Below are positions 6,520 through 58,956 of a stretch of 64,000 nt of DNA, one piece after another. The stretch comes from a virus. The stretch lies in IMG/VR virus record IMGVR_UViG_3300031555_005516; one strand, 5' to 3'. The notes beneath the pieces are model-generated. The model was given only the letters and a program-made list of their open reading frames with translations. It was not told the DNA's origin and did no database searches. The translations under genes and the position numbers were made by a program. Every line of letters starts with the position of its first letter. Positions within the stretch are counted from its first letter, which is position 1.

Positions 6520-7029
6520 ATGTACTTATTGGCATTAGATGCTTCAACTAAAGCAACAGGAATTGCAATTTTTAAAGATAAAGAATTAATTGGATAGGCT
6601 TGTATTACCTCTTCATCTACAGATCTATATAAAAGAATACATAAAATGGTGGACAATATTCTAGCTGTCGTAGATTAGCTAGGAATTAATTAGATTGTAA
6701 TGGAAGAAGTTATTCCAGATCATAGTAAAAACACAAATACATTTCGTGCATTAATGTATTTATAGGCATTAATTCATATTGAAATGCACGATAAACATCC
6801 AGAGGTATAGATTGAAATGATTTATCCTAGCTCTTGGCGCTCAGTATGTGGCATAGAAGATGGACGCAGCTCTAAACGAGAATAGAAAAAGCAAAAAGAT
6901 ATTGATTTCGCAAATAAAACATATAATCTATCTTTAACCAATGATGATATAGCAGATGCCGTATGCATAGGCCATGCCTATCTTAATCCTAAAAAAGAAA
7001 AAGATTATACCGCAGCTTTGGAATGGTAA
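6520..7029 (+). CDS. RuvC-like Holliday-junction resolvase containing 5 in-frame TAG codons (recoded)
   Basis: RBS 'ggaggtg' then ATG. 'MYLLALDASTKATGIAIF' matches RuvC 'ILGIDPGSRVTGYGV', and the C-terminal 'DADAVCIGHAY' matches RuvC 'DAADALAIAI'. Five in-frame TAGs (first at 6595-6597) and no TAA/TGA until 7027-7029. One TAG aligns with Gln in the RuvC 'KLGQARG' block ('MYL*ALI'). Confidence 0.7.
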
Positions 7030-7047
7030 ACAAAAGAGGAAGATATA

Positions 7048-7371
7048 TTATCTATATCTTCCTCTTTTTATTCTTTCAAACATCATATCAGTAATGTCTA
7101 TAATCTCCTCTCCAAACACAGAAATAATTTCTGCAATTAACTCCTCTTCATCGTGCTCTAACAGGACATTATACGCAAACATTGAGGCATGTACTAATTC
7201 ATGACACAATACCTGCTCAAACATCTCACTATGAAGCGCATTACTGATATAGATAGTTTTAGTAGTATCATTACACGCTCCTAAAGCATATCTACCATTT
7301 GGCATTAAAAGTGCAACGTCGTATGGATAAACTAAAACTATCTACCAATATTCTCCATTAATAGTAAACAT
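7048..7371 (-). CDS. Small HExxH metallopeptidase-like protein (1 in-frame TAG)
   Basis: Track ORF 7048..7305 carries 'CHELVH'. It extends upstream through a TAG at 7342-7344 to an ATG at 7369-7371 ('MFTINGEYW*IVLVYPYDVALLMPNG...'). A TAA lies immediately upstream. Confidence 0.45.
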
Positions 7372-8108
7372 TATTTTACTTTAGATGCTAACATAGAGAT
7401 CTTCTATTGAAGAAGTTGTTTCTCTTCTGGAGATGCATCTTGAATCATTTCAGTCATATCATTTGCAAGCTCTTGCATATAAGATTCAAGTTCCTGCATT
7501 TGTTTGGACTTGTCATGATGTCCTTTTCCTTCCATATACATCTTGCGGCGCTCACCGCTTCTTCCTTCTTTAGGGTCGCGCATCATTGCATGTCTTGGGT
7601 CCTGCATCATACCGTCTCTATAAATATAGGGCATAGGTTCATGATACATAGAATATGAAGAAGCTCCTCCATCATTATACATAGAGTAGGATGTTTGTCC
7701 GTCATCATAGCGTCTGATCATTCCATCCATATATCCTCTAGTGCCGCCTCCGCGAGCATTGTTTCCACCAGAAGAACGACCGCCGTTACCACCATTTGAT
7801 GAAGAGCCTCTGCCACCACTATTGCCGCCTTGCGCATACATAGTGCCAGGATAATATCTCTCATCATAACGAGGATCATACATTTCTGCTGGGTATGGAG
7901 AATAATACATAGGCATACTGCCTTTTTCTTCATTAGCTTGCTTTTCCATTGATTCTGTTATAGTGCAATAGTAAACAGCTTCAGAAAGGTCTTTAATCAT
8001 ATCCATTACTTCGCCAAGCTCTTCAGCATTGACTTTTTCAAGGTTTCCATAAACTTGTCCTTCAGCAACGCCAATAAGACATTCTTTCATTTTCTTTAAA
8101 TTTTCCAT
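7371..8108 (-). CDS. Low-complexity Gly/Asn/Met/Tyr-rich hypothetical protein
   Basis: The 234-aa track ORF 7404..8108 ends on TAG. Read-through adds 10 codons to a TAA at 7371-7373, overlapping the next start (TAATG). The middle is low-complexity 'GGNSGGRGSSSNGGNGGRSSGGNN'. Confidence 0.4.
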
Positions 8109-8109
8109 A

Positions 8110-8529
8110 TTATGCCACCCTTTCTATGATTAAATTTGCGTTTTGTACATCGATATCTTGTGTACTTGTGTTTCTTGCTGCAACAGAAATGCAGCAACCT
8201 GCTGGAACATCAATATAAGCTGCGCTAGCCACATTTGCAAATTCCTCTACCGCAGCAGGAGTTTGAATCATAGTTGTTGAAGCAATAGCCTCTCCATTTA
8301 CCGAGATGGCAATTGAAATGGCTTCTACGGTTCCATCTGCAGGAATAGCAATATTTCCGCTAAAGAAAACCTTGAATCTTGCGCGACACTGATTGGTAAT
8401 GCCGCGCAAGGTAATTAAGCCACTTCCTGCTCGATGGAGAATCGAGTTACATCCACTAACAACTTCATCTGTAAACTGAACATTTTCGCCAGCACCAACT
8501 GTTTGTAAAGCATTAGCAATTAATTCCAT
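8110..8529 (-). CDS. Hypothetical protein (possible beta-rich/jelly-roll domain)
   Basis: Intact 139-aa ORF, hydrophobic/Ala-rich. No motif identified. Confidence 0.4.
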   Translation of the reverse strand: MELIANALQTVGAGENVQFTDEVVSGCNSILHRAGSGLITLRGITNQCRARFKVFFSGNIAIPADGTVEAISIAISVNGEAIASTTMIQTPAAVEEFANVASAAYIDVPAGCCISVAARNTSTQDIDVQNANLIIERVA

Positions 8530-8554
8530 TCTTTTTCAAGCCTCCATTCTTAGA

Positions 8555-9325
8555 TTAGAAGCAACCGCAGCCGCAGTTAGAAGATGCGATCTGAACCTGA
8601 GGGGTATAGCAGCAATTAGGATTTGGAACTACATACGCAGGAATTGGGCAATCTCTGCCAAGTCTACGAATAAGTTCTGCTGTTTGAGCCTCTTGGTTAG
8701 CAGTGATAAATGCATTCTGATTTGCTTGAGATGCCGCAAACTTAAGAGATTGATTCTCCGCAGTAAGAGAAGCGATCTTATCTTGCGTCATGAAGTCAAT
8801 GATTCTATCACCAAGTTTGTCAATAGCCTGAAGCGTGTTGCAATTATAGGTTTGAGCAGCAAAACGGTTTTCCATATTAGCCTTCTCAATGTCACAGCAG
8901 CAAGCCGCTAACTGGCTAGATAGGGCATTAGTGTTAATTACACCCTGAGTTTTTACGTCTGCGATAGCGGCACGAGTGTCGCAGCAGCATTGTGCAAGTT
9001 GATTACCAAGTGCGGTAAAGCCTGCCTGATTTTGGTATCCAAGAGTACAGATTGCATTATCTACTCCATGGAATCCAGATGTGATAGCATTACTTAATGA
9101 ATAAGTGCTATCAGCGAGACCGTAGGTTTGGTTATCAAGTTTAGAAATAAGGGTTTGCTGATCAACAGCCGCGCGAACGTCGTCTTTAGTTGCACAAGCG
9201 CCCGAACTAGAGCCAAATCCATAGAAGTAGGGATTAAGAACGTATCCACTTCCTCCTTCGGAACCTCCATTGCCCCAGCCGTTTCTTCCCCATCCAGTGA
9301 ATAGGAAAAGAAGAATGATCCCTTC
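8555..9325 (-). CDS. Gly-rich and Cys-rich secreted-type protein; start and frame ambiguous
   Basis: Track ORF 8555..8875 continues upstream without a stop through repeated '...LAQCCCDTRAAIADVKTQ...LAACCCDIEKAN...' and a Gly-rich N-region 'GWGRNGWGNGGSEGGSGY'. It ends 'NCGCGCF'. The only ATG with an RBS ('aggataacATG', 9325-9327) is in the -1 frame. Confidence 0.3.
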   Translation of the reverse strand, partial: EGIILLFLFTGWGRNGWGNGGSEGGSGYVLNPYFYGFGSSSGACATKDDVRAAVDQQTLISKLDNQTYGLADSTYSLSNAITSGFHGVDNAICTLGYQNQAGFTALGNQLAQCCCDTRAAIADVKTQGVINTNALSSQLAACCCDIEKANMENRFAAQTYNCNTLQAIDKLGDRIIDFMTQDKIASLTAENQSLKFAASQANQNAFITANQEAQTAELIRRLGRDCPIPAYVVPNPNCCYTPQVQIASSNCGCGCF

Positions 9326-9561
9326 ATGTTATCCTATAAGCTTTTTATCTTATAGTTCTATTACTTGTTATTTGTAATAGGTCAGCATATCTTTTCTATT
9401 AATTTTTCCAAAAAATTTTAATAGTCGCGGCCTCGTGGCGGGATTATATCTTTTCACCCGCTATGCGTTGCCCCTGACTATACTTAGTATAGCCTTCGGT
9501 TCTGATTCCCATTTCAGGGTTCCAGCTTAATTCCGCGATTTAAAGATGGCAGATCGGTTTA

Positions 9562-9666
9562 CCATCCATTCTCTCCAAAGCCGTCTCCGAATCCTCCGTT
9601 TCCTCTGTTGCCACCTGTTACAGCAGCGATGTCGGATAATGAATATCCGTTTGAAGTGTTGAACAT
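9562..9666 (-). CDS. Small Gly-rich peptide (~35 aa)
   Basis: Strong RBS 'aaggaggacataatATG'. Encodes 'MFNTSNGYSLSDIAAVTGGNRGNGGFGDGFGENGW', TAA stop. Confidence 0.3.
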
Positions 9667-9706
9667 ATTATGTCCTCCTTTATAAAAAAATATTTATTTA
9701 GAATCA

Positions 9707-9952
9707 GAGTCCAAAATACTGCTTTTTGAATCTACTGAATTCTTTATCGAAATCAATACCCTACTCCTTAGCAAGATTACGCGCAAATTTTTCTATATCT
9801 GCCGTACGATTATCTTTTGCCATAGTTAATAGGTTGCCAATGATTGGGTTCTGTGAAGCTTCTCCTTCAAGAATATCAATCATAAGTTGCTCAGGATTTT
9901 TACCCTGACGCATTTGCATTAATAAGTATGCAGGATCTACATTATAAGCCAT
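9707..9952 (-). CDS. Hypothetical protein (1 in-frame TAG)
   Basis: Track ORF 9761..9952 ends on TAG. Read-through runs 17 codons further to a TGA near 9704-9706. Confidence 0.35.
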
Positions 9953-9969
9953 TATATACCTCCTTATAG

Positions 9970-10428
9970 ATTAAATGTTTTTACAGTTTGTGGCTTAGGC
10001 GCGGGACCAGCTTCAGTATTCTTTTCCTAGACTAAGCTTTCTTTAAATCTGGCTAATATTTCATCAAGCTCATCTTTAGTAACGTATACTGGAGTCGAGG
10101 CGCTCTAATCGGCTCCGGCGCCGCTTAATTCAAAAATATTAAAAGCCGCAGTTCCATCCATATTTATCTGTTTGGTATAAATTTTCTTATTTCCCAGATC
10201 TGGAAAAACATAGAGCGAGCCATCTAAATCAATCTAACTAGCTCTTGCTTCATCGATTGAAACTACTGGGCGACCTTTAATATAATTTGGTTGCATCATC
10301 AAAGGCTGCGTGTAGGTTGGCTAAACTGGAGCAGTCATCTCTGCCACCTAAGAAGCTTGTCTTTGATAAGTTTGTGGCGCATAATAATACGCTGGCGCCT
10401 ACTGAGGTAGATTATTGAACATATTCAT
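9970..10428 (-). CDS. Hypothetical Gln/Tyr/Pro-rich protein with several in-frame TAGs
   Basis: RBS 'aaaggagaataaaaaATG' near 10428. Encodes 'MNMFNNLPQ*APAYYYAPQTYQRQAS*VAEMTAPV*PTYTQ...'. No TAA/TGA until about 9970. Confidence 0.35.
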
Positions 10429-10525
10429 TTTTTATTCTCCTTTCACTCTTGTTCAAGATTATATGAAAATTTAAATAGTGCTTTTATTAAATTTTGATAT
10501 AAATTTTGAAATTTAGCAGGTAATA

Positions 10526-10563
10526 AAAAAAGTTCTCATCAATATGATGAGAACTTCATTTTT
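10526..10563. terminator. Intergenic hairpin terminator
   Basis: 'gttctcatca-atatg-atgagaac' flanked by A/T runs on both sides. Confidence 0.5.
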
Positions 10564-10605
10564 TCTATTTTTATTCAAAATTTTAATATTTTATTTCTTT
10601 CAATA

Positions 10606-10645
10606 AAAAAAGAACTCATCGCTGAGTTCTTTTTATTTTTTATAT
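10606..10645 (-). terminator. Terminator downstream of the 622-aa gene
   Basis: 'agaactcatcgctgagttct' hairpin flanked by T-runs. Confidence 0.5.
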
Positions 10646-12508
10646 TCGTTCATCTGCTTTAGAAGCACTAATATTCATCATACCACTTGCATCAAGAGGA
10701 ATGGTAATAGAGTTTATCATAAACTCTCCATCTATATCACTATTATCGTCTTTAATGTAAATTCTTGAATTTGGTTTTAAGTGATAAACGGGAATTGTCT
10801 ATAAAGAAACTGTATTTGCATAACTTGTATAAGTATGAAGCGCCGAGCGCACAGTTTCATAAGCAGAAACCTAAGCTACTCCTATTGAAACATAATTCTT
10901 AATATCGTCTGTTAAAACAATATATTTTTTACCAACTGGAGCAGCATCATCTTCATTAATAAACAATACTTCATCAAACTTAGGTTCAAAAACACAATTT
11001 ACAGCATTATCGTTTATAACTGTATTTCTCTATCCTATCTTTTCAGCAGACATATCCTTAATCATATTGTCTCCAACTAAAGATTTAGGATCTAGCATAT
11101 CTAAGAAATATTTTATAGAACTAGAACTAAGAGTATATTTCCATCCTGTTTTTCCATTTGCCGTCGCGCCATTAAAGCCAATATCAAATATCTTAGGGAA
11201 CTCTTCTTTAAACTCTTTAGCAAGATTGGTTTGAATACTATCTGCAATAATGCTTAAATAATATTGCTATTGCCAGTTAGATGCTTTAATTGCATTTTCA
11301 GGTTTATCATTGGCAGAATATCTAGTCACTTTTTTTGCTTTGATATTGCCAAGATAGTCAATCTCTACATCATCAATAGTAAACCAGTCTCGCTCCTCTG
11401 GAGGAGTATCTATAATCAAATGATATCTCACTGGCGCCTATTTATCTTCAGCCTTTCCCCAAATAATAATATCATTTTTAATATTTGTATATTGAGGTGA
11501 GTTATTGTAAGACGTAATTAAAGCATTGTTTTCAAAAGAATATTCCACTTTACCATTAGATAAATTCTTTAAATACTTTTCATTAATAGCTTCATTTAAA
11601 TCGTCAATAGAACTACCTTCATTCAAATAGTTTTTGATTTCTTTAAAATGAAATATACCATTTTCATCAAAGTAATATTCATAATTACCTAGAGCGTTTT
11701 TAATCTTGTCTAATACTGAAGTTACTGTTTCTCCAGCTTTAGATTCAAGAGTTCCAGGATAAGTAAACTTTTCTTTTTTATATCCTAAATTCTCTTGGTT
11801 TTTAAACAGTAAAGCTCCTTCTTGAGGAATAGAAGTTAATTTATATCTATCATTTTCGATAGGAATCATAAAAATATTTCCTAAACCAGTCCATCTTACA
11901 ACAGCTTTAAATTCATCTTCAATATCTTCTATCATTATTTTATCTTCTGGTATACCACCCATTTCACTTACCAATTCATGAATTAAAGTAGTAAATAAAA
12001 CAGGCTCTTCATCACCGTTTTCAACAGCAATAGGCGAGTGTATGAGTGCACTTGTGAAGCGTCCGCCGCAATCTCCATTAAGCAACGACATTTTATCACT
12101 TATAGAAACTGAAATAGAAATATTCTAAGCGTTGTTTGATACCGATGCGCTTTTAATTACAAAAACACCTTGATTAAACCAAAAGTAATCATAATCTAAA
12201 TATTGATTATCTGTATTGCGCAAACCAATCTCTATCTTCACCCTTTTATTAATTGATATAAGATTCTCAATATCGGTCACGTGCGCAATTGCATCATCTG
12301 GATCATTAGCAATAGAAATAAGTGAAACGGAACCAGTTCGTCTAACCACTGATTTTGCATTAACATTGATACTTCCTCCTGTCGCCAATCCAGAGATACT
12401 TTTTAAAGGAATATCTTTATCATTTAAAATAGTAAGTCTTACATACTATTCTTTAATTAATAAAGAGTCTATATAGTTTAAAATATCTTTATTATAATAA
12501 TATCTCAT
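10640..12508 (-). CDS. Hypothetical structural protein (~622 aa), TAG-recoded
   Basis: RBS 'aaaggagggtattATG' at 12508. Track fragments 12125..12388 and 11438..12091 are in one frame and joined through TAGs. I scanned 12061-12180 and found no TAA/TGA. True stop TAA at 10640-10642. Confidence 0.45.
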
Positions 12509-12520
12509 AATACCCTCCTT

Positions 12521-14208
12521 TATTAAGAGAAGTATTTTTGATAAGATACACCGTTTGCTTCTGCTACTTCAGTAGCTAAAGCTGAAAATGAATAAATCAT
12601 TCTACCTAACTCTTCTTTTGGTGTTAAAGAAATATTTGTTAAATAAACAAAAATATTTCCTTCTGGGGCAGATTTGAAAAGTTTTACATCAGGAGAATAT
12701 AAGAATTCTAATACATTGTCTCTAAAATTCTTTTCAAGTGCAAAATCAAGCGCCTTAGGGTCAAGGTTAGCCGCCTAATATTGCTCTTTCAACCCAGTAG
12801 AAATAAAGTCTTCATTTCCTTCATCATTAAATCCAAGTGTTATTAAACCATTTATAGTAAAACTTCTATAATCCTAAATACCATTTCTCATTACCTTGGG
12901 ATAACGTGCGCCTAAAGTTGGAGTTAACTTATCTATACTATTTCTCTTTAACCCAGATACTTTTGGATCATACTAAATACGCAATGATTTATCTTTAGTA
13001 CAAAGAACCATATGATCATAATCAATACATATTAATTCTTTAGTAGTAATGCCATTTTCTTTATAGTAATACTCATAAGGAACACCTATTTCAAGTGTTT
13101 TATCTATATAGTCATTAACGTTTTTTGCAACTCTCTCAATTTTATTTGTAAGTATATTTTTTCTTACTAAAGAAAATTTATTCGTATAAGTATTTTCTTT
13201 AATCCATTGAGTTAACTCTTCATTATCTGAAGGGATAATAATTTCAATAGATTTAAAAGTATCATCAATCCAATATTCCTCAATTTCTCCAGTTGTCCCA
13301 AACGCATTATGATAATAATAAACCATTGTATTATCATAATATAGCTCTTTGATTAAATCTGATCCACCTTCATTCCATGTAAATCTCATAGATGAAAATT
13401 TAATATTATTAGATATAAAGCTTATTATCCCAGAAATATCGCCGTATTGACCAGACCCATAGGGAGAGCTATAAAATTTTTGTATTTTACTAATAAAGCT
13501 AAGAGTATCTAATTCTTGTTCTGCTTTTTTTGCTACTTCACTCTCTGGTGACCATTCTCCGGGATATTCCGACCATGTTGTTGTATTTGATAAAGTAAAG
13601 CCTGATTTTGCCACATATTTTCTCATTATCTTAAAGAGATATTCCATTTTATCAATTGGAGTAGTATCTAAAACATGTGTCCAGACTTCTGCTTCATAGT
13701 ATCGAGTTTCTGGTTCAATTAGATACTTGTCTTCTGCATATGAATATAATGAAATCTCTTGATAGAGCACATCAGTTAATCCTTCCACCTAATTTGATAA
13801 ATAAGAAGATATATCAAGAGTTGAATCAGCTGGCATATAATTTTCTCCAGCAAGATATATTCCGTCGATAATAATCTTTTCTATAGTATCACTCCATACT
13901 GAATGATATTGCTTGTTATTGGAATCTTCAAGCCATTGCTATACATCTGAAATATCCTAGTTTTTCGCAATAGTTATTGCCTAAATTCTTATTTTACCAT
14001 CTTGCAAGGTTATACTATTATTAGATACGTTCTATAACGCAATATTGGTTTCCCATTTGTTTTCGTCTTTATTCCACGTCTATAATTTTACTATTATTCG
14101 ACCTGTGTCGACATTAACAGTATGCAAAAATTCAATAGGAACGATACTGCTAGTGCAAGAATATGTTTCATCTATTATTGGAGGATACAAAATTTTTGTA
14201 TCTATCAT
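12521..14208 (-). CDS. Hypothetical structural protein (~562 aa), TAG-recoded
   Basis: RBS 'aggagtgattatATG' near 14208. Track fragment 12973..13788 is in the same frame. Multiple in-frame TAGs. Ends '...GVSYQKYFS*' with TAA near 12521. Confidence 0.4.
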
Positions 14209-14245
14209 ATAATCACTCCTTTTATCTCTTTATAAATTCTTTATA

Positions 14246-14740
14246 TCAGTCTTTATGAACTGGGATTACAGTAATAGTAGGAAGTGCACTAATCTCTTCT
14301 ACCATTTTTTTCGCCCATCCATTGCCGCCTTCTTTATTATATATTTTATAGCGCTGTAAAATCAGGTCTAAACTCTAGCTGTCAATGCATTGAAGCGCAA
14401 TCCACTTTTCATGTTGCTCTTTTATCCAAGCTTTAGTATTAAGCATATCTGACTCTGTCAATTGCTCAATTAATTCTTTCTATTGAGAAACAATTACCTT
14501 TAAATCAACGATATCAGATTCCATTTTTTTAACTCTTTCTTCAAGTTTACTTTTTTCAAATTGCTCTTCTTCAGCTTCAACACCTTCCTGATATCCCCTT
14601 TGTTCATTCTCTTGTGCAAAAGCCTATCTTTGTTTCCAAAGCTTTTTACACCAAGAGATAAAATTAACTATGGATGGAATAGCTATAAGTAAAATAACAA
14701 TGATGCCAGTCACACCATAGGTTGTTAATAATTCGACCAT
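14246..14740 (-). CDS. N-terminally membrane-anchored coiled-coil protein (2 in-frame TAGs)
   Basis: RBS 'aaaggaggatttgacaacaATG'. Encodes 'MVELLTTYGVTGIIVILLIAIPSIVNFISWCKK...' then heptad-like charged repeats. TGA stop at 14246-14248. About 165 aa. Confidence 0.4.
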
Positions 14741-14815
14741 TGTTGTCAAATCCTCCTTTGCATAAATGTTTTCTATTTATATATAAAAAATGTTATAAAT
14801 AAATTAAATAAAATA

Positions 14816-15007: not shown

Positions 15008-15322
15008 TTAGAAGAAAAATACTCCCGCTCGTATTAACATATAAAAATTATTTATAATAACTATAAGATACAATATTGTCACAAGCCAAGCCTCCCAAGA
15101 CAGCCTCTTATCAGCTTTAATAATAAGGCCAAGAGCTAACAATAAAATTGGCATAATAATTAATTTTAGCCATCCACAATCGGCTGCAAACATAAGGCGC
15201 CCTATTGGATTGAGCTCAACGCCAAGTCCAAAAAGTCCTATGGCGTATGCTGTTTGGCAATAATCAATTATGTTAAAAATGGACGTTATTATCAATAATA
15301 TAATAGTTGTAGTCATTATCAT
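15008..15322 (-). CDS. Small polytopic membrane protein (holin-like or GtrA/flippase-like)
   Basis: Intact 104-aa ORF with about three hydrophobic segments. Lies directly downstream of the GT2 gene. Confidence 0.45.
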   Translation of the reverse strand: MIMTTTIILLIITSIFNIIDYCQTAYAIGLFGLGVELNPIGRLMFAADCGWLKLIIMPILLLALGLIIKADKRLSWEAWLVTILYLIVIINNFYMLIRAGVFFF

Positions 15323-15363
15323 CCCTCCATTGTAAAAAATTGGGGTTCTGTTAAATCTTGTTT

Positions 15364-16344: not shown

Positions 16345-16376
16345 TTCCTTTTATCTCCTTTTATCTCTTTTAAATA

Positions 16377-17432: not shown

Positions 17433-17451
17433 TTGTTAATCCCCCTTTACA

Positions 17452-17820: not shown

Positions 17821-17838
17821 TATTTATTTACCTCCTTA

Positions 17839-19727: not shown

Positions 19728-19834
19728 AATATACTATCTCCTTTTCAAGTATTAAATTCTTGAGTTATCACTTTCAAACTCAAGTGGCTTTTAAAAGAGG
19801 GTGGGTAGAATTACCCACCCTTATGTGTATTTAA

Positions 19835-47169: not shown

Positions 47170-47189
47170 ATACGCTCCTTTTATCTCAC

Positions 47190-49505: not shown

Positions 49506-49588
49506 ATAATAATCTCCTTTTATCTCCTTTTGAAATTAAGAGGGAAGGAAGTTTCCTTCACTTCCCTCGTTAAAGTTCAGTTTATTAA

Positions 49589-50641
49589 TTATCTATCAAT
49601 AGTGAGAGATGTGTTCTTATAAACACAAATATCATTATTAATCATTGTGGCAACTCCGACTTTCTTATAGAAATGGATGCTCTTAGACCAGTCGTCATTG
49701 TCCTCTTCTTTAATCATTGTATCGCCTTCAAAGGCAATCTTAATAGGCTTCTCAGCTCCGCCAGGAATAATCCATGCGTATGCAGGATCAATAACTTTCT
49801 TCGAGTTGGTCTCGTCAACATAAGACTGGCGAAGAACAATTACTTGGTGACCCTTATAACCTGCAAGTCTACCATTTGCCCAGTACTCGTCCTTCATAGA
49901 GTCAGACATCTTGCCCTTTTCCCAAGCATTATCAGGAAGCATTTGCGAAGCAAACTCAAAAGTGCAATAAATTGTAGATCTACCATTTCCATAAGAGTCA
50001 GCTACGGCAAGAAGAGAATCCATTTCAGCTTCGATGAAACTTGCGCCTTCAAACTTGTTTGCAGGCTGAATTGTATCAACAGCAGCAATTAGACAACTTG
50101 CTATCTCAGCATAGATTCTATCATCCATACCTTCCATAACGATGTCGATAAGAGTAGCCATGTCAACACGTCCATCAAGATATTCCTCGATAGCGATCTG
50201 ACAAGCAGCAGCCATAGCAGAAGTCTTAACTTCGTAGCTACGTCCATCAAGTTTGAATACTTCGTAACGACCAGCAAGTCCTGCAGGCATTGCAATAAAC
50301 TGCTTTGCACGTCTGCGAGAAGCTTCTGTGATCTTCTGTGTAAAGATTGGTTTTTCGCCTTGTCTATATGTTTTAACTTCAGCAAATGCGCCATATTGCT
50401 GCATTACCTTAGCAGGAAGCTTATCTGTGATAATTTCCTCCATAAGTGCGAATACAATATTGTGATTCTCTCTCCAAAGAGCATACGTTCCAATAAGACT
50501 ATTAAGCTCTTCACGAAGAGTGTTATCAAGATCTGCATAACTATAGTTCTTATTCTCGAAAGAATAAGCAACGGGAGCAGAAGGATTAGCGTCAGCAACT
50601 TTGTGTGCTAATGTAAATAAACTATTTCTATTTAATGCCAT
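49589..50641 (-). CDS. Major capsid protein (HK97-fold type)
   Basis: Intact 350-aa ORF, RBS 'aagggagggaataataATG'. Position (after protease/scaffold, before connector genes) and size fit an MCP. Confidence 0.55.
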   Translation of the reverse strand: MALNRNSLFTLAHKVADANPSAPVAYSFENKNYSYADLDNTLREELNSLIGTYALWRENHNIVFALMEEIITDKLPAKVMQQYGAFAEVKTYRQGEKPIFTQKITEASRRRAKQFIAMPAGLAGRYEVFKLDGRSYEVKTSAMAAACQIAIEEYLDGRVDMATLIDIVMEGMDDRIYAEIASCLIAAVDTIQPANKFEGASFIEAEMDSLLAVADSYGNGRSTIYCTFEFASQMLPDNAWEKGKMSDSMKDEYWANGRLAGYKGHQVIVLRQSYVDETNSKKVIDPAYAWIIPGGAEKPIKIAFEGDTMIKEEDNDDWSKSIHFYKKVGVATMINNDICVYKNTSLTIDR

Positions 50642-50658
50642 TATTATTCCCTCCCTTA

Positions 50659-51189
50659 TTATTTAATACGCATTACCTTAACGCCCTGTTGACCGTCAGG
50701 CATTGTGTAAACTTTAACAACTTGGAATACGATATCGCTAGTTCCTGCAGTAGAAAGGAATCCTTCATCATTGATCTTAAGCTCAGTACCAACGTCGATT
50801 TCCTCAGTACCTTCAAAAACAGCCTTGCCAGAGGTATTTGCGCCCTCAAGGCAGTTTGTAGTATAAATGTCACCAGGCATAGTCTTAAGAACTCTTGGCG
50901 CCATTACACCACCATTAAAATTATCAGCTTGAAGAGCAAAATCCTTGTAAGACTCTCTCCAAGAATCATCATAAAGCTTTACTTCATTCATAACGAGCAT
51001 CCACTCGCCCTTGCCAGTAAAGTTAATTTCGCCACCGTTTGTAGCATAGTCATATTTTACGAACTGACCATTCTCAAGGATCTTAATATCCTTGTTACAA
51101 GGGAGAGATGCGTAAACCTGACCGTTTCTTTGAGCGGATAGATGGTTAGGCTCTACCTGACCAAATCCAATACGCTTAATAGTAGCCAT
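50659..51189 (-). CDS. Hypothetical capsid-associated protein (possible decoration protein)
   Basis: Intact 176-aa ORF, RBS 'aaggaggacatatagcATG'. Between scaffold and MCP. Confidence 0.35.
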   Translation of the reverse strand: MATIKRIGFGQVEPNHLSAQRNGQVYASLPCNKDIKILENGQFVKYDYATNGGEINFTGKGEWMLVMNEVKLYDDSWRESYKDFALQADNFNGGVMAPRVLKTMPGDIYTTNCLEGANTSGKAVFEGTEEIDVGTELKINDEGFLSTAGTSDIVFQVVKVYTMPDGQQGVKVMRIK

Positions 51190-51213
51190 GCTATATGTCC
51201 TCCTTAATTAAAC

Positions 51214-52620
51214 TTAAATATTTTTAGCCATTACATTTTCAACTGCAATAAGCCACTCAGGTTTTGAAGCACCAGGATCAGACACATTAAATGTCACAGC
51301 TGGCTGCTCTATTTTATTATTATTTTTAGAGGAATCCTCTAAATCAAAATTGACCTTTTTTCTGAAACAAATTACAGAAAGTTTTTCTTCAATATCTTCT
51401 ACAGTGTAATTAGCTTTGTTAGAAATGACTTCTGCCTTATCTTCATCGCTAAGCATATAGAATTTATTAATCATTTCATCTTTCTTTGCATCGTCACTTT
51501 GTCTTTTAAATTCAACAAGTTCTGCATGTGCAGTTTCAAGCTCTGTGTATCTAGATTGAAGCTCACTATACTGAGACTCAAGAGCAGAATATTCAGCTCT
51601 TACTGTTTCAAGAGTTTCTTGCAATGCCGTATACTGTTCTTCAATAGAAGGCGCGGGAGTTGGTTCAGGATCTATTGGAGTAGGTTCTACAATAGGCTCT
51701 GGCTCAACCGCTGGTTCAGCTACAGGCTCCTCAGCAACAGGCTCAGCTACCGGTTCTTCAACAGCGATAGGCGCTTCTTCAACAACAGGCTCTTCAGATG
51801 CAGCAGATGAAGGTTCTGCGCCATCAATGGGCTCAGTTACTGACTCAACTACAGGTTCTGCAGCAGGCTCAACAACCGGCTCTTCGACAACAACAGGATC
51901 GACGATTGTGTCTATCATTTGCTGACCTCCTTCTAATGCAGTTTTTAAATCCTGCATCATCGTAAATAATGTTTGTCTAAAGTTATCATCAACTTTAGTA
52001 AAAGACGCACTAACATTTAGTGCTGTTACACTAGCTCCCTCAAAACAAGGCTTAATGTCATCACCTAAAATGCAAAGTTTTGAAAAAATTGCGTCATTTA
52101 TAATAAAGAAATCCATGCCACGAGTATTTGTTTCCCAGTGTCCTTGTAAAGAATCTTCATCTAATTCCATTGATTGCGGCTTGCCATCACTCTCAACGGC
52201 AGACTTACATTCTTCAAATTGACCAGTCCACAAATATCCAGTAGTCATTAGATATTCTCTCAAAATATTTTCTCCAAAATCATTGGTATCTTGGAACTCT
52301 TGGAACCATACCTTTGCATCTGGAGCTACAAAACCGTAAGGAACAGTTTTGCAATTAAACTTGATACCCTCATCATCAATGATGACTTCTTTTCCATGAT
52401 CTCGAAAATCTTCTTTTTCTTCTTTATAATAGCCAACAATTGGCGCGCCTCTAAGCGTTTTCGCCATATCTGTGGCTACTTCTTTGGTAATATAGGATCT
52501 ATTCCTATTTTCACCAATATAAAGAACCTTGATTTCGCAAGCGCTCATAAGAGGATTGATATCAAGTGGGGTTAAGTTGATAAACTCAGGAGAGTTTATC
52601 GTTGCAACAGATTTGTGCAT
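51214..52620 (-). CDS. Prohead protease/scaffold-like protein with Pro/Glu/Val-rich repeat linker
   Basis: Intact 468-aa ORF. N-terminal globular domain, then 'EPVVEPAAEPVVESVTEP...EPVAEPVAEEPVAEPAVEPEP' repeats, then coiled coil 'YTALQETLETVRAEYSALESQYSELQSRYTELE'. Between portal and MCP. Confidence 0.4.
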   Translation of the reverse strand: MHKSVATINSPEFINLTPLDINPLMSACEIKVLYIGENRNRSYITKEVATDMAKTLRGAPIVGYYKEEKEDFRDHGKEVIIDDEGIKFNCKTVPYGFVAPDAKVWFQEFQDTNDFGENILREYLMTTGYLWTGQFEECKSAVESDGKPQSMELDEDSLQGHWETNTRGMDFFIINDAIFSKLCILGDDIKPCFEGASVTALNVSASFTKVDDNFRQTLFTMMQDLKTALEGGQQMIDTIVDPVVVEEPVVEPAAEPVVESVTEPIDGAEPSSAASEEPVVEEAPIAVEEPVAEPVAEEPVAEPAVEPEPIVEPTPIDPEPTPAPSIEEQYTALQETLETVRAEYSALESQYSELQSRYTELETAHAELVEFKRQSDDAKKDEMINKFYMLSDEDKAEVISNKANYTVEDIEEKLSVICFRKKVNFDLEDSSKNNNKIEQPAVTFNVSDPGASKPEWLIAVENVMAKNI

Positions 52621-52636: not shown

Positions 52637-54229
52637 TCAGCTCATAGCTTCTCTGTTTTGAATAGTCTTTTCAGACTTTTGATCATCCGCTTTTTCTGGA
52701 CGACCGGTTTTCTTTTTTTCAACAGGTTTATCCTATTGTGCGCCTGAAGGCTAGGTGTTAGCAGGCTATATCTTAGCCTTATGTTCTTCTTGCGCCTATT
52801 TAGAAGTGAATAATCCAGTTACATCAAGAACTTCATTTTCAAACTTAGCAGTTGCAATTACACCAGCTTGAGACTGCCCTAAAGCAACACTTGAAAGTAG
52901 TTTTGAGCCACCAGTTGCGCTAAGTTCTTTATAAAGTTTTGACATATCTTTATAATTATAAATAGTTGTAGGAAGTATATTTACTTTATAATACAACTTT
53001 TTTGGATTTTTATTAAAAGGTTTAATAAGATAATTTAAAAATGTTTCAAATTGAAGAATGAGTCCATAAATATTTGCCTCATCATCAAGAATACTTTTTT
53101 CTAACGCAATATTGCCATCAGTATTAAATAAATTTTGTGCAGTACCAGATTCATTGTAAACAGATCTTTCAACTTTTTCCAATTCATCCATACTTGCTGC
53201 GGCTTGAGTATCTGCCATATCTGCAACTTCAACATCTGCAAAAGTTGTAAGTACGTCAATACCAATTGCTTTGCCCAGCATCTTAACTGCATTATTATGA
53301 AGTTCTTGCGCTTCATCCACATCAAATATCAATTCACCATTTTTATCTAATGGCATTTTTTGAATGATAATTTTTAATAGTTTCTACGCCATTCTTTTTC
53401 TATCTAACTCTTGTGCAGCATCCAAATCTATAATATGTGGAATTACCGAAACAAAAGGCGGATAATCTTCATTATTAATATTAAATTTAAAAGTATGCTC
53501 AATATCAAGCAAATACCATCCCGCTGTATCCCCAGGAAAATCGGGTATCAATTTTCCCTCTTTAAAAGCAATATAACCTTTCTAAAAGTCTTTTGGCCAC
53601 ATTGCCAAGACTCTCATTCGATAATCAACATTTTTAAATTCATCATCAAAGAATTTCATATTGAATTCTACTGCAGGTCTACCTTTAATGCTATATCTTA
53701 CTCTACAGTATTTAGGCAATAGCTCCTAAATTTGCGCCGTATCGCCATCTTGAATAATATATCCATAATAGCATCCTCTGCGCATTACTTTTAAAGCTAC
53801 TTCACTAAAAAATTCTTTTACTCCAAATTCATTTAAATAATAACTACTTTTATTAAAGCCGTCAATTATTTTATCTGGTGTAACTTTATCTGATGGAGTA
53901 AAAGGAGTAATTGTCCAGTCATATCTATAAAAATTAGCTAAATGTTTACAAAGTCTAGAATAAATACCACTAATTTTAAAGTAAAACTCTGAGGCGCTTC
54001 GCATAGTTTCAATATCTCCGCGCGCTATCGCCTGCAGAATATTTTCTTTAGTCATTTGTGGATTAATTTTCTTATATGCGCCTAAATTCATAACCGCATC
54101 ATTAAGAGATTTAATTCCAACTTTCATTTTAGCATATTCCATTTCTGGGATAACATTTCCTTCGACTGGGATACTTCTTGGGGTGCTCATGTCAAAACCT
54201 TTTTTACGAATTTCTTCCATTCTGTCCAA
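52637..54229 (-). CDS. Putative portal protein (~530 aa, TAG-recoded)
   Basis: Fragments 53726..54229 and 52796..53356 share a frame and are joined through TAGs. Read-through of the TAG at 52796 continues to a TGA near 52637-52639, overlapping the next start. Placement between TerL and protease/scaffold fits a portal. Confidence 0.45.
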
Positions 54230-54289
54230 GTTTAAGCACCTCTTCTTTCTTCTAATATTATATTTTAAATTTTAAACTTTGTCAATAAC

Positions 54290-54647
54290 CCGCGGCAGTA
54301 AAGATATAATCATAGGTTATAATACTTTCATCTGTATAAGGAATTATAACTAAGGGAATACGGTGTTTTTTACAGTATTCCCTCTTAAGCATATCATAAT
54401 ACTGCTAAGTGCGTAATCCAGCGATTCCACCAAATTTAGACTTGGGTTCATAATGTTGAATTCCTTGAAACTCAATTAAAAAATCAACCTCACCCTCATC
54501 GTCGAGCACTGCAAAGTCAAAACGAAGTGGTGTTTTAGAATGACTGACAAGATCGGGAAAAGAATATTCTTCTTTAAAAGAAACTCCTTCAGCTGTTAAA
54601 ATATCATATATTTTAATTTCTCCTCGACTTGCTTTCATACTTCTCAC
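54290..54647 (-). CDS. Small PD-(D/E)xK (DUF559/Vsr-like) endonuclease, 1 in-frame TAG
   Basis: 'DFAVLDDEGEVDFLIEFQGIQHYEP' has the E-x-(Q/D)-G-x-x-H core of DUF559-type nucleases. Fragment 54405..54647 ends on TAG and continues about 38 codons. Inserted between terL and the portal. Confidence 0.4.
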
Positions 54648-54712: not shown

Positions 54713-56458
54713 TTATGAGTAGAACATCATTTGAGATATATTTCTCTTTTTTCTCTTTTTAGATCGCTCTTCTTCTTGTTTAATATAATACAAACCATAC
54801 TCAAAAGCAGAAAACTTATCCTTAGGAATACTACGAGAAGATTGTTTTAGAATAATATTAGTTCCTTCGTTGTCTTCTACAAGGTTTAAAAGCTGCTCAC
54901 GCAAAATAGTGGTTAAAGTAAATGGCTTTAAATATTCTGCACGCTTATCAGCATCCATCTCCTGTCCCACCTTGGTTGTCATAAGCTTGTTCTTAGCCGT
55001 AACTTCATCAATTAGGAACTAAATTTTACCACCAACAAGCTAGGTTTGTACATAGGTATGAGCTTCTGTGTTAATAGGTGCATTAGCCTTAATTAAATAC
55101 ATAGCATCCTCTTCCACTCCTGCGCCTTTAATCTTCTTATATTGCTCATTGAATTCATCTGAAGTTCCTCCAGCCACTCCAAAAGGAGGTAAGTACTCAC
55201 CTGATTCAGGATCCTCTTGCGCCTTGGTCATAAAGTCTATTAATCCTGCGCCAAGACCATTGGCGTCGATTGCCGCTACTCGCGCGCGATATTTGTAAAA
55301 TAATTTTTTAATCTTAATCGCTTGTGCTTCAAAGTCCTCTGCTTCATAAGAGTAGAGATTAACAAGTGACTTAATAGCGGCGCCTTGCGCCTGGGGCGAG
55401 ACCTTAAATACACAAACCTCGGTTGTACATTTAAATCTACCTACGTCGACACCTAAGACATAGTATCCATTCTTTGAGATTTTGCCTGAATACTCATACT
55501 CGGGCAATAGGCGCGACCTGTGCTTATCAAATTTTTCAGCTGAGAAAAATGCATTCTCAGCATCGCCGCTCCACTCAGACTCATACTCTCTTGAGAACGA
55601 TGCATCATTATATGTTCCGTCAAGCTTTAGCTCATCAATAAAACTCTTTTTCAGTAGCTTTTCCATAACTGGAATACGCCAGGTTCCGCCCATAACAACG
55701 GCTTCATCAGGGTATATAATCTAACGGATAAGAAGCTCTATAAGTTTTTCATATGCGAAGCTGTTTTTCCAACCCGCTGTTGTTACGTAGATCTAGCTCT
55801 TATTTACAGTTTCCGATTCTATACGACTACCATCTGCCAATCGCCTGTCGACATTAAGGGTGGGAATTATTACTTCATTCAGTAGCGTCTAGTCAATTAA
55901 GATACACTCCTCCATAAGTCCGCCAGTAGCACGCTTACCTCTCGAAGACTGGCGCGCTGCCATAATATCAAGTTTTGAACCATTTTTAAATATTAATTCA
56001 ATGTTATCTTTACTTGTTTTAGTCTTACCTCTTGTCATATCTAACTCGTTTCGCAAGCCTGGAATTAGCTTGCAAAGTTCATCACTTTTCTCTTTAGCAA
56101 TTCCTGCTGCTTGCTCTTTTCCGCCCGTAGTGACGAATAAATGACTACCTGGATATAAAATACATCTAAGCATCAATACAAGAACTGATAAAAAGCTCTT
56201 TGAATAGGCTCTTGGAAACGTCGCATAGGCATATCTATGACGCATCACTGCTCTAAGGAAAAGACGCTAATAAAAGAAAAGCTAAAAATTTTCTGGGTTA
56301 GGACCACAAAGAAACTCTACAAACATATCTGGATATTCACGCCAATAGGCAACATACTGGCGGACTATAGGTAATTGCGCCCTAACGCGTTCTTCTGATA
56401 AGCCTATTTTTTGTTGACCTCTATCAAGAGTAAGGTCTAATAAATCTTGTAGCGCCAT
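54713..56458 (-). CDS. terL: Terminase large subunit (TAG-recoded, ~581 aa)
   Basis: RBS 'gaggtataagatATG'. N-terminus 'MALQDLLDLTLDRGQQKIGLSEERVRAQ'. ATPase region 'HLFVTTGGKEQAAG...IELIFKNGSKLDIMAARQSSRGKRATGGLMEECILIDE' (Walker B/coupling). Nuclease domain 'YVLGVDVGRFKCTTEVCVF'. Fragments 55889..56248, 55040..55693 and 54713..54982 share a frame and are joined through TAGs. TAA at 54713-54715. Confidence 0.8.
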
Positions 56459-56461
56459 ATC

Positions 56462-57682
56462 TTATACCTCAGTATAAATATTTTTATCTTGTATTTTTTG
56501 ACTCATAATTTCATCATAATAATCAATTAAATCTTCATCAGCCAATTCATTTGGCGCATATGGATCATAATCGTCGCCCTCTTCCATTTGACGCTCTTCC
56601 GCCTCTTTATTCATTTCATTTTGAAGCATAATCTTTTTTAAAGAATCTTCTATTTGCTGTCCGAAACCAAGGTCTTGAGTAACCAATTTGCGCACATATT
56701 CATTCATATCTTTTAAAGTCATATCTACTTTATCTTGAGGAATATCTGTAGCGAATCTAGGAATAAAACCATCTCTTTCGCATAACGCTATTAATTCACC
56801 AACAGAGTCAACAAAATCTCCTTTTTCCTCTTTATTCTATTGAGCGGTAAATTTTGCGCTTTTACGCAAAGATTCTGCCACTTTCGCAAGTTTTTGATAA
56901 CCTTCAATATCTCCACAGTCAATAGCTTGATTAGCTTTTAAATTAGTTTTACAAAGAAGGATTAAGGTATTTTCAGAGTCCGCATCTTGAATATCAAATG
57001 ATTTTTTCATTTTAGTATAATCTGTTTCAAGAATAACCCATTCATTTGGTTTGTATAGCTTTCCCCATTTTACAGCCATTGCTATTTTATCTTCCTATGT
57101 TAAAGACGCGGCGGGGTCTGGGATCTCAGAATCATCTAAGAATTGATTTTCATCAAAAAAGTTGGTATCAGGCGCAATCGGCTAAGCTATAGATGGCGCC
57201 TTTGAATAAAAATTAGCATTTCGCGCAGTGGTGCTTACTAATGTTCTATACTAAGCTTCTGAAATTTCCCCTTTATCATACTGCTCTTGATACATTGCGT
57301 CCAATTCTGCTAGTTCTGCATCAGATGCAGCTTTTTTCTGCGCAGCCTCTGCCTATAGGCGCTCACTATCCGCCCAGCGCGCATCTTTAAATTGTTTCAG
57401 TTTCATTTTAGATAAATATTTTCCAAAGACAGACATGCCATTTAATTTACGAGGATCATCATTCGCTTTTGCCATTGCGTTGTCTCGTAATCTATTCCAT
57501 TCACCAGGAACGTAAGGAACATCCATTTTTTCTAAAAGCCAAACAAAAGTAGACTCATCAAAATTATTAATATGAAGTGTCATACATTTTTTACAAAGTT
57601 CAGTTTTAGTTCCATCATGATAGGTATAAAACTATCCTTCATCCATTGTCTTTTGACACTTATCACAAAAACAAGTTGCCAT
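56462..57682 (-). CDS. Zinc-ribbon N-terminal protein upstream of terL (possible small terminase), TAG-recoded (~406 aa)
   Basis: RBS 'aaaggagaataaaattgaATG'. N-terminus 'MATCFCDKCQKTMDEG*FYTYHDGTKTELCKKC'. I translated 56720-57682 and found 5 TAGs and no TAA/TGA. Fragments 57353..57583, 56837..57079 and 56462..56722 are one gene. TAA at 56462-56464. Confidence 0.35.
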
Positions 57683-57769
57683 TCAATTTTATTCTCCTTT
57701 CTAATTAAATAATTTATTCTATAGAGAATTAAAAATATTATTATAATAATTTTTATAATATGTTTAAAT

Positions 57770-58956
57770 TATTTTTTATTCTTTGCATTACGACATTTTT
57801 TACACATACTATACCATCCATCTTTAGAACTGCTATTTTTAGAATAGAAATAAGTATGAGCGGGTTTAGTTACCCCACAACAAGAACATTTTTTCCAACG
57901 GGCGCCTTTATGTGACTAATAGTATTTTATAACATAATCGATTTGCGCCTGTTGTGCTATTAATTTAGGTATTTTATTGCGCCATAGGTTTGAAATATAT
58001 TCTACGGTGTAGGTTTTATTATATGTTTTTAATAAATATTTTTGTATATCAATATTCTGAATCCCATCAAACTTCATATTGACAATATCGCGAAATATAG
58101 GTTCATTGTTAAGCGCCTTGTCCAATAGCTCATCAAAATCCAGCATAAGAAAATAAAAATCGCTAGAAAATTTATCTTTAACAGCAAGTTTTAATCCATT
58201 ATAATTGCACATAATTGCAGAAATATGCTTAGGATCAAAAAAAGATATTACACCTTTACTTTGTGGAATTCTATTTTCATCTAACCAATATTCTACGTGC
58301 AAATCAATTTTATTTACTCCTTTGGCGCAGGGTGCCGCAACCACAGGCTGGCGCACCGAACTTCGTAATATATATTGATCTTTACGCATTTCAATTAATT
58401 GTTTTTTTAACAGATATTTTCTCTTGCCACGGGCGCTTTTACATGCCGCCTCTACTTTTTCAATCTCTTCGCGCAGCTCTTTTAATCCAGGAATTTCTTC
58501 AATATCCCGCTCTGAAATAGGATCTTTTAATTGAAAAAACATATTTTTATTATCAGTGATTAAATTATAAATACCATCTTCACCATTTTCAAGTTTTTCT
58601 GCTAATCCTTCGTATGAGGTTTCGCGCTTATTAATGGTTATAAGGCGGTTTGTAGTAAGGTATTGGCGCCCCTTCTTTTCTTCTTTTGTAATGCCGCCCA
58701 TTATATAATCGCCTAATATTTCTAAATAACGATTTGTAAGATTCTGCGCCGGAGTTTGCTCTACGATCTTATTAACAAGACCGGCGCGCTCTTCGCAAGT
58801 TTTTAAAGTATAGTCTAAATGCAGAGTTTGTTCAATATCCTCTGCCGCAATCTAGTCTTCAATTATATCTGCCTCTTGGTTAGGAGCCGAGTCTTCGTCT
58901 TCTATGTCCAAAAGGTCTTGAGTATTATCGTAATCCAAGTTATTGGCTCCTTTCAT
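57770..58956 (-). CDS. First gene of the leftward operon: acidic N-terminus and C-terminal Cys4 zinc ribbon (putative regulator), TAG-recoded
   Basis: ATG at 58954-58956 ('ATGAAAGGAGCC'). Contains fragment 57916..58701, which reads through a TAG into '...SHKGARWKKCSCCGVTKPAHTYFYSKNSSSKDGWYSMCKKCRNAKNKK'. At least 2 in-frame TAGs. Confidence 0.3.

Follow-up and report, generated by a model that had tools for sequence, protein, structure and literature searches.

Probable decoding of TAG as glutamine in the late genes of a divergent relative of the phAss-1 phages

The 64,000-nucleotide (nt) stretch of viral DNA IMGVR_UViG_3300031555_005516 (IMG/VR), hereafter the window, very likely covers about half the genome of a large phage with a long tail, presumably from gut or rumen, that belongs to the SPbeta/Enterococcus-EF1/phAss-1 lineage and in which the amber codon TAG is decoded as glutamine (Gln) in the late genes (‘genetic code 15’). 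Judging from contigs of its relatives (135 kb), the complete genome probably has a size of ~135 kb. The phenomenon is known and the phage group has already been published: the window belongs to an undescribed, divergent relative of the phAss-1 group, and represents no new type of system. Modest additions, slightly beyond the literature consulted, are that capsid and major tail genes are exempt from recoding throughout the clade, a fibre cassette poor in TAG and, in a relative, a stand-alone, promoter-driven suppressor tRNA. The window has a G+C content of 35%, and nearly all genes at positions 7048-58956 are on the - strand. Exact copies of the capsid protein, the guanylate kinase and a small early protein are present on independent metagenome contigs of the Joint Genome Institute (JGI) and the European Nucleotide Archive (ENA), which rules out an assembly artefact.

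How does this DNA read when TAG is taken as a sense codon? With a simple, greedy call of non-overlapping genes over 6520-58956, coding coverage rises from 0.638 under the standard code (table 11) to 0.958 with TAG as sense (compared with 0.684 for TGA and 0.808 for TAA), and mean gene length increases from 151 to 313 amino acids (aa); this is the gain in density that a sequence-only reading, made earlier without database searches, would lead one to expect from its proposal that TAG alone is reassigned. Stop-to-stop open reading frames (ORFs) do not exceed 1005 codons in the standard code, the two longest attain 3167 and 1656 codons with TAG as sense, and no comparably long frames appear anywhere in the window with TGA or TAA as sense. 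The called frames contain 226 in-frame TAG codons and, on re-translation, not one TAA or TGA, both of which are much commoner than TAG out of frame. Within the late block there are 208 TAG in 16,274 codons, which makes ~208 sites, or 32% of all Gln codons, and no frameshift was found in the recoded genes, including the 9.5 kb of the tape measure frame. As had been claimed, genes still end in the other two stop codons: the 64 called genes use TAA (48) or TGA (16) and never TAG, which terminates 19/164 genes (11.6%) in standard-code relatives.

Most of the detailed statements of the sequence-only reading were borne out by recounting. The frame of the tape measure gene (32940-42443) is indeed open for 9.5 kb (3167 codons, 69 TAG, no TAA or TGA), with exactly the six TAG counted between 33771 and 34200. 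The genes for the large terminase (TerL), the portal and a 1649-aa protein, with seven, seven and 38 TAG, likewise become open once TAG is sense, and the coiled-coil peptide that had been quoted is present (tape measure residue 2851), with TAG encoding three of the four Q in it (Y-TAG-TLSEK-TAG-DAVIKQY-TAG-TEYSEV). Some corrections are needed. At 43918-44826 there are eight TAG rather than seven (and, as stated, no TAA or TGA); the gene called ‘TerS-like’ (56462-57682) has its TAG codons, six of them, but the TerS label is unconfirmed, as the protein matches only phrog_3314, of unknown function, and no Pfam family; and it is true that large structural genes are broken only by TAG, but not that every one is broken. 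A tendency of terminator hairpins to follow genes is not supported statistically (seven terminator-like sites at 26-46 kb, against 8.0 expected), individual clear examples being those at 6441-6467, 7032-7068 and 42522-42492. Several ORFs of the greedy caller that contain single TAGs were rejected as spurious, namely 4747-4965 (+) (the real gene, 4731-4925, stops at TGA), 50635-51207 (+), 9128-9421 (+) and several - strand ORFs at 61-64 kb.

Hidden Markov model searches with the recoded proteins matched tape measure, TerL, portal and tail families, and these proteins match their families over full length. To identify the amino acid, recoded proteins were aligned, with TAG written as X, to phages shown by their own coding density to use table 11. 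Opposite TAG, three close relatives that use the standard code (MT836163 and two contigs from IMG/VR) have Gln in 56/140 cells (40%), against 156/365 (43%) opposite CAA or CAG, and the runners-up are the same in both cases (E, K, R and D). For three distant phages, the corresponding fractions are 40/198 and 100/401. BLOSUM62 sums over 174 cells at TAG are 353 for Q, 188 for E, 132 for K and at most 72 for all others. At TerL codons 64, 222 and 473, all TAG, Gln is present in every standard-code homologue that aligns there, and at portal codon 168 (TAG) in all five that align. The expectation that TAG would fall at Gln positions is thereby well supported. Five recoded relatives have TAG 60, CAA 56 and CAG 7 times opposite TAG codons of the window, and CAA 233, TAG 72 and CAG 58 times opposite its ordinary Gln codons, so the three codons behave as synonyms. 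All this indicates that TAG is a glutamine codon in the late genes.

The codon usage fits an origin of TAG by CAG-to-TAG (C-to-T) transitions in the AT-richest genes: CAG has nearly gone from recoded genes (CAA 84, CAG 13 and TAG 69 in the tape measure gene; 28/3/38 in the 1649-aa fibre gene) and is kept in TAG-free ones (the capsid gene, for example, has four CAA and six CAG), and the TAG fraction of a gene is inversely correlated with its G+C content (rho=-0.61, p=4e-5). An in-frame TAG is followed by C at 19% of sites, compared with 9% for CAA or CAG (chi-square p=0.0035), and the base after genuine TAA or TGA stops is T in 34/64 genes; both are consistent with efficient suppression. If former TAG stops had left traces, in-frame TAG should be overrepresented close to C-termini; this idea was rejected, as about five genes have a TAG in the last 10 codons, with about five expected from the overall density.

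Recoding does extend across the morphogenesis region, as had been proposed, but not uniformly, since the abundant virion proteins and one fibre cassette escape it. TAG is missing altogether from twelve late genes that encode 100 aa or more: those for the capsid, the YonD-like head protein, the phrog_30998 protein and the probable major tail protein, most of the cassette at 15008-21733, and the two genes at 8110-8875; one of the TAG-free genes specifies a 632-aa fibre-like protein. Across the head module (48930-52620) not one of 31 Gln codons, in the three genes counted, is TAG, and none of the four recoded relatives examined, which include phAss-1 and a heavily recoded contig with 52% identity, has a TAG in its orthologues of the capsid and major tail genes. 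From this we infer that TAG is selected against in the virion proteins of highest copy number; the maintenance of TAG-free capsid, head scaffold-like and major tail genes across the clade suggests that decoding TAG still carries a cost. In the genes for low-copy proteins (tape measure, fibres, portal, terminase, resolvase), TAG makes up as much as 55-86% of the Gln codons. The cassette at 15008-21733 comprises, among others, a GT2 glycosyltransferase gene (15364-16344; Pfam Glycos_transf_2) and one for a BspA-type leucine-rich-repeat (LRR) protein (16377-17432; Pfam LRR_5). It has one TAG in 63 Gln codons, against the late-gene average of 32% (P=1.2e-9), and a higher G+C content (0.37-0.40), and may be a host-recognition module recently acquired from a standard-code source.

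If TAG is read as glutamine, where is the tRNA that would do so? Scans used ARAGORN (allowing introns, and with lowered thresholds) and Rfam, with phAss-1 as positive control, all three of whose suppressors were found. They detected no tRNA in the 64-kb window. Extension with the phage's own sequence gave 7.4 kb on the left (helicase, DNA polymerase III alpha) and ~10 kb on the right. Three relatives in IMG/VR have arrays of 15-21 tRNAs each, with no CUA anticodon among them. The closest long relative, IMGVR_UViG_3300029705_000054 (135 kb; TerL 88.7% and capsid protein 85.8% identical), has a single stand-alone tRNA(CUA) (L051:18594-18668) ~19 kb beyond its tRNA array and ~110 nt downstream of a perfect TTGACA-17-TATAAT promoter (12/12). 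This tRNA scores 58.9 bits with Rfam. The anticodon loop reads CUCUAAA; a U1.U72 mismatch is combined with G2, G3 and G73, and the gene includes the CCA. The acceptor and anticodon arms of this tRNA are near-identical to those of one phAss-1 suppressor. Its acceptor features are those that we take to be identity features of tRNA-Gln, as in E. coli. The search for a CUA anticodon, which the sequence-only reading had called for, was therefore negative for window and flanks and positive for the closest relative. Elsewhere, a metagenome scan for the anticodon-arm/T-arm pattern of the suppressor gave only three contigs, two of which come from human-gut assemblies and none of which was shown to be of this clade, and a looser pattern was found in at least 120 phage contigs in IMG/VR, so such tRNAs are widespread.

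Two peculiarities of the relatives' tRNAs may be mentioned here. One TAG-recoded relative, IMGVR_UViG_3300029305_005988, has a tRNA (L049 4312-4387) to which ARAGORN assigns the anticodon UCA (of the opal-suppressor type, labelled SeC); reading TGA as sense gives no gain in coding density for this contig, and the tRNA may be a second suppressor or a miscall. In IMGVR_UViG_3300029705_000054, Rfam recognizes two tRNA-like genes (L029 14120-14260 and 15883-16033) that ARAGORN does not call, with insertions of 39 and 81 nt in the anticodon loop. The inserts resemble partial tRNAs with a T-arm and CCA, and may represent nested or interrupted tRNA genes within the phage array.

Could the broken frames instead be decaying pseudogenes of a defective prophage or dead-end lineage, with TAG as ordinary nonsense mutations? 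Table 11 does split the large genes into many short ORFs, but the stop-codon asymmetry (226 to none, in spite of the far greater frequency of TAA and TGA out of frame) already refutes this, and frames intact over 9.5 kb, proteins as long as their homologues, TAG at conserved Gln positions and the persistence of the pattern in several related contigs leave it a probability close to nil; reassignment rather than pseudogenization, as the sequence-only reading concluded, is what the data support. We also consider it extremely improbable that TAG is still mainly a stop, at which low-efficiency read-through attenuates expression or yields minor extended products. TAG density is inverse to presumed protein copy number, as such attenuation might produce, and C after TAG is, as we understand it from E. 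coli, a context of weak termination; but the genes for TerL, portal and tape measure, essential proteins with single-copy functions, have a TAG within the first 70 codons and up to 69 in all, read-through of even 50% per site would give no full-length tape measure, and conserved domains lie downstream of the TAGs. A little less remote, though still very unlikely, is a sense codon for another amino acid (Glu, Lys, Tyr, Trp, Leu, Ser or pyrrolysine). ARAGORN labels CUA tRNAs ‘Pyl’ by default, and 60% of the partners opposite TAG are not Gln (E and K being next commonest); against this, the partner spectrum is the same for TAG and CAA/CAG, Q scores nearly twice as high as E, several TAG sites correspond to invariant Gln, TAG is exchanged mostly for CAA or CAG among relatives, and no pyl genes were seen. 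The relative's tRNA(CUA), with U1 and a weak 1-72 pair, G2, G3 and G73, also bears what we presume, from E. coli, to be marks of tRNA-Gln.

It might be supposed, too, that the host bacterium itself reads TAG as sense, so that the phage mirrors the host code without any switch of its own; the window has no suppressor tRNA, and the same holds for some published recoded phages (Babkin et al., 2023, PMC10607447). If TAG were an ordinary codon of the host, however, its complete absence from both flanking gene blocks and from the virion proteins made in greatest amount would be unexpected; phAss-1 and the closest relative have their own tRNA(CUA), and there are sister phages, with protein identities of 54-70%, whose code is the standard one. 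We know of no bacterium in which TAG specifies Gln. Published surveys predict standard-code Firmicutes or Bacteroidetes as hosts (bioRxiv 10.1101/2021.08.26.457843), and a host with this code seems to us highly improbable. Most likely, the reassignment is a suppression imposed by the phage late in infection, and not a property of the host code. Several points count against the overall interpretation. tRNA(CUA) is absent from the 64-kb window and from ~17 kb of its own flanks (~40% of the genome lies outside the scanned sequence), and the suppressor of the window phage is extrapolated from a relative with 88.7% identity in TerL; the window and the ~17 kb of flanks contain no release factor or aminoacyl-tRNA synthetase gene; the identity of the amino acid is statistical (40% Gln partners) and not proteomic; and the timing of expression is deduced from gene order, strand and promoter-like sites.

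The following scheme would accommodate these observations. Host RNA polymerase would express the code-neutral genes and the suppressor tRNA early; the tRNA(CUA) would be charged as tRNA-Gln; and only when the suppressor became available would TAG-bearing late proteins be completed, recoding thus acting as a translational gate on morphogenesis. With 69 TAG, a 50% yield of full-length tape measure would require ~99% read-through per codon, which implies that termination by release factor 1 (RF1) at TAG would be nearly abolished late in infection; no candidate for a factor able to do this is evident in the window or flanks. More speculatively, late transcription might be driven by the first gene of the late block (57769-58956), which has a perfect host-type promoter and two TAG codons; in that case suppression would be a gate not only on translation but also on transcription. 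It is conceivable, but in our opinion rather unlikely, that TAG density is not merely tolerated but tuned to protein stoichiometry and timing, as perhaps indicated by the TAG-free state of the high-copy set in lineages diverged to 45-52% identity. Suppression would then be both a checkpoint that releases late transcription and a rheostat that sets the ratios of virion proteins, the standard-code sisters at 54-70% identity would imply repeated gain or loss of the code, and horizontal spread of one suppressor-tRNA lineage, common to these phages and phAss-1, would be possible.

The features of the window are collected in Table 1.

Table 1. Genes and gene blocks of the window, in order of position (E, E-value of the match)
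Position	Strand	Feature	TAG codons	Matches and remarks
61-6437	+	Nucleotide-metabolism block		Guanylate kinase, glutaredoxin-like, NrdD with intein, NrdG-like, dUTPase (JGI Pfam table)
6520-7029	+	RuvC-like gene	6/7 Gln codons	Pfam DUF3882
7048-7371	-	Metalloprotease-like gene	1	
8110-8875	-	Two genes	0	
9964-10428	-	Recoded gene	6	
10640-12508	-	Tail protein	7	
12523-14208	-	Recoded gene	9	
14246-14749	-	Membrane-anchored coiled coil	3	
15008-21733	-	TAG-poor cassette within late block		Membrane protein, GT2 glycosyltransferase, BspA-type LRR protein, Gly/Ser/Thr-rich fibre-like proteins
21837-27847	-	Distal tail/fibre genes, 963, 450, 181, 294 and 109 aa	3, 1, 3, 4 and 2	
27936-32885	-	Tail fibre-like gene, 1649 aa	38 (55% of Gln codons)	C-terminus matches phrog_1980 tail fibre, E=1.4e-8
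32940-42443	-	Tail tape measure, 3167 aa	69 (42% of Gln codons)	Ten PHROG tape-measure families, best E=4.6e-70
42547-43080	-	Gene between major tail and tape measure, 177 aa	1	No family match
43147-44826	-	Gene between major tail and tape measure, 559 aa	11	No family match
44893-45795	-	Putative major tail protein, 300 aa	0	phrog_2729 virion structural protein
45845-46594	-	Connector/completion gene	8	
46584-47168	-	Connector/completion gene	2	
47186-48160	-	Connector/completion gene	8	
48121-48432	-	Connector/completion gene	3	
48436-48912	-	Connector/completion gene	3	
48930-49505	-	Head module protein	0	phrog_30998
49589-50641	-	Major capsid protein, YonB type	0	JGI Pfam YonB
50659-51207	-	phrog_35301 homologue	0	Outside called gene set
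51214-52620	-	YonD-like head protein	0	JGI Pfam YonD_N
52637-54229	-	Portal protein, 530 aa	7	phrog_2739, E=3.5e-67
54282-54647	-	HNH/homing-endonuclease-like gene between TerL and portal	1	phrog_559, phrog_9084
54713-56458	-	TerL (SPbeta YonF type), 581 aa	7	phrog_2, phrog_5909
56462-57682	-	Gene upstream of TerL, 406 aa	6	phrog_3314, unknown function; no Pfam match
57769-58956	-	First gene of leftward late block, 395 aa	2	phrog_5767 ‘sigma factor’, E=9e-39
59071-64000	+	Rightward block, small early-type genes	0 in frame	

Some of the entries in Table 1 call for comment. The ‘sigma factor’ label of the gene at 57769-58956 is tentative, coming from PHROG only: the protein has no Pfam sigma-factor domain, and it ends in a zinc-ribbon/HNH-like tail; its orthologues in relatives have two or three TAG each. 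For its neighbour at 56462-57682, the JGI table shows a weak YonG_N match on a fragment. The head-tail connector genes (45845-48912) match phrog_4051, 6123, 31155 and 29637, an order shared with Enterococcus phage VRE9_4, which also has a homing endonuclease gene at the position of 54282-54647. The protein at 44893-45795 is probably the major tail protein because its gene is upstream of that for the tape measure, and position alone suggests a role in tail assembly for the two genes between them. The distal tail/fibre genes have weak matches to tail-protein families of PHROG, and the entries at 7048-14749 make up the distal end of the late block. Two small late proteins have unusual compositions: that encoded at 7371-8108 (-) is very rich in Gly, Ser, Met, Tyr and Arg (‘GGNSGGRGSSSNGGNGGRSSGG...’), and that at 8555-8875 (-) has a C-terminal Cys cluster (‘NPNCCYTPQVQIASSNCGCGCF’) reminiscent of the precursor of a modified peptide. 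The RuvC-like gene is a separate unit between the first two of the strong terminator hairpins mentioned above; its label is borderline (Pfam PF07066, 23.4 bits against a cutoff of 22.1), and a PDB sequence search with the protein gave no match.

The two flanking blocks on the + strand can be read under either code. TAG is found neither as sense nor as stop codon at 61-6437, save for one TAG of ambiguous status that precedes the NrdD start at 1286, and other apparent in-frame TAGs in these blocks are artefacts of the gene caller or come before a plausible start. At 59071-64000, too, no convincing TAG is present, in frame or as a stop. The right block (6 kb) has 38 sigma70-type promoter-like sites, against 20.0 +/- 3.9 expected, several of them perfect (12/12) with a TG extension, and no enrichment of such sites was found in the late block. 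Consensus TG-extended promoters are located at 59019, 61593, 62114, 62954 and 63658, within a cluster of perfect or near-perfect TG-extended TTGACA-17-TATAAT sites (58971-59047, 61593-61621, 62114-62142, 62954-62982 and 63658-63686). A divergent promoter pair marks the boundary between the late (-) and early (+) blocks, its leftward member (58999-58971, -; 12/12, TG-extended) being directly upstream of 57769-58956. On the left, NrdD (1286-4252, +) has 988-1024 aa instead of ~730, and the JGI table lists an intein-splicing domain; it seems that the gene is interrupted by an intein with a LAGLIDADG-like insert. Mobile endonuclease genes are associated with core genes: besides the HNH gene at 54282-54647, a GIY-YIG endonuclease gene (L009 4895-5737, in the left extension) separates two parts of the gene for DNA polymerase III alpha.

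Comparison by tblastn with TerL gave 122 phage records. The best match was the unannotated human-faecal fragment MT836163 (69.8%), followed by Geobacillus virus E3, Alicyclobacillus phage KKP_3916 and Enterococcus phages (42-44%); for SPbeta-like Bacillus and Lactococcus 949-like phages, in which the protein is annotated ‘YonF’, identity is ~30%. Together with the order of TerL, portal, capsid, major tail and tape measure genes, which is SPbeta/EF1-like (JGI Pfam YonB, YonD_N and YomW; synteny with VRE9_4), this makes the phage a large siphovirus of the SPbeta/EF1 type. Two families that match the N- and C-terminal halves of TerL (phrog_15503 and phrog_24618) were considered as possible fragments from mis-annotated recoded phages, an idea that was rejected because phrog_24618 traces to Enterococcus phage EF1 (MF001358), and the TerL match in EF1/EF5 is split around an HNH homing endonuclease gene.

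The sequences nearest to the window are unannotated IMG/VR contigs and two contigs deposited within metagenome-assembled genomes (MAGs), JAZKZW010000082.1 (106 kb; ‘Eubacteriales bacterium’) and CACYVR010000001.1 (139 kb; ‘Methanobrevibacter sp. RUG12316’). The latter looks like a binning error rather than an assignment of host, and the ‘RUG’ in the name of one of the assemblies hints at an origin in the rumen. JGI calls on the window's own DNA, made in the standard code, break up TerL, portal and tape measure, leaving dozens of pieces annotated as ‘hypothetical’; since standard pipelines shred the genome in this way, the phage and its relatives are mis-annotated, and re-annotation with table 15 is called for.

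The standard-code relatives (MT836163, IMG/VR 3300028048_000073, VRE9_4/EF1, Geobacillus virus E3 and SPbeta-like Bacillus phages) have the same gene order from TerL to tape measure, at 30-70% identity, but differ in using table 11, with coding densities of 0.84-0.92 without recoding and ~12% TAG stops. Code states are interleaved: MT836163 (TerL 70%) and two IMG/VR relatives (L021 and L022; capsid protein 54%) are standard, and phAss-1 and the closer IMG/VR relatives are TAG-recoded. Similar interleaving has been described in other clades by Borges et al. (bioRxiv 10.1101/2021.08.26.457843), who also found late-gene stop-codon recoding to be widespread in gut and rumen phages and published a model of early suppressor and late gate. 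The standard-code sisters at 54-70% protein identity should be a useful comparison set for the origin of the code change.

With recoded gut phages in general (crAss-like, Lak and Garnet/Amethyst/Jade/Sapphire/Agate/Topaz), for the first of which TAG to Gln has been proven by metaproteomics (Peters et al., 2022, PMC9523058), the window phage shares the confinement of recoding to late structural genes, low G+C content, replication and nucleotide-metabolism genes readable in the standard code, disappearance of the recoded codon from stop positions, and the existence of close standard-code relatives. Those phages also have recoded lysis genes, phage-borne suppressor tRNAs and a proposed gate on late translation; no lysis genes were identified in the window. 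It differs from them in its SPbeta/EF1-like siphovirus lineage and in having no gene for RF2 or an aminoacyl-tRNA synthetase in window and flanks.

The closest known system is the phAss-1 group (Babkin et al., 2023, PMC10607447), siphovirus-type phages with genomes of ~135 kb (133-138 kb), tape measures of 3149-3209 aa, TAG decoded as Gln in TerL, portal, tape measure and fibre genes, and two or three tRNA-Sup(CTA) genes. The same study described divergent relatives both with and without recoding, and a genus Phassvirus (OQ749652, BK046881, BK025033) was proposed for members with 80-86% nucleotide identity. Phass-1 is placed by NCBI taxonomy in a ‘Caudoviricetes code 15 clade’. Like this group, the window phage has a tape measure of ~3150 aa (here 3167), a syntenic morphogenesis module, a NrdD/NrdG/dUTPase block, and the same recoded genes with TAG-free capsid and major tail; a homologous tRNA(CUA) is present in its closest relative. 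Unlike it, it has a G+C content of 35% rather than 40-50%, its TerL and capsid proteins have only 42% (41.7%) and 45% aa identity to those of phAss-1, and megablast of 10640-14229 against GenBank phages gave no match. phAss-1 has two suppressor tRNAs next to NrdD, a spot occupied in the window by the glutaredoxin-like gene at 955-1188 with no such tRNA, and the closest relative has its single stand-alone suppressor; the relatives of the window come from JGI metagenomes, and the phAss-1 group from human gut samples. On these sequence comparisons, the phage belongs within the broad phAss-1 group and outside the proposed genus Phassvirus. Few Firmicute-type siphoviruses in which TAG has come to specify Gln have been described, and the phage adds to them a lineage that is divergent.

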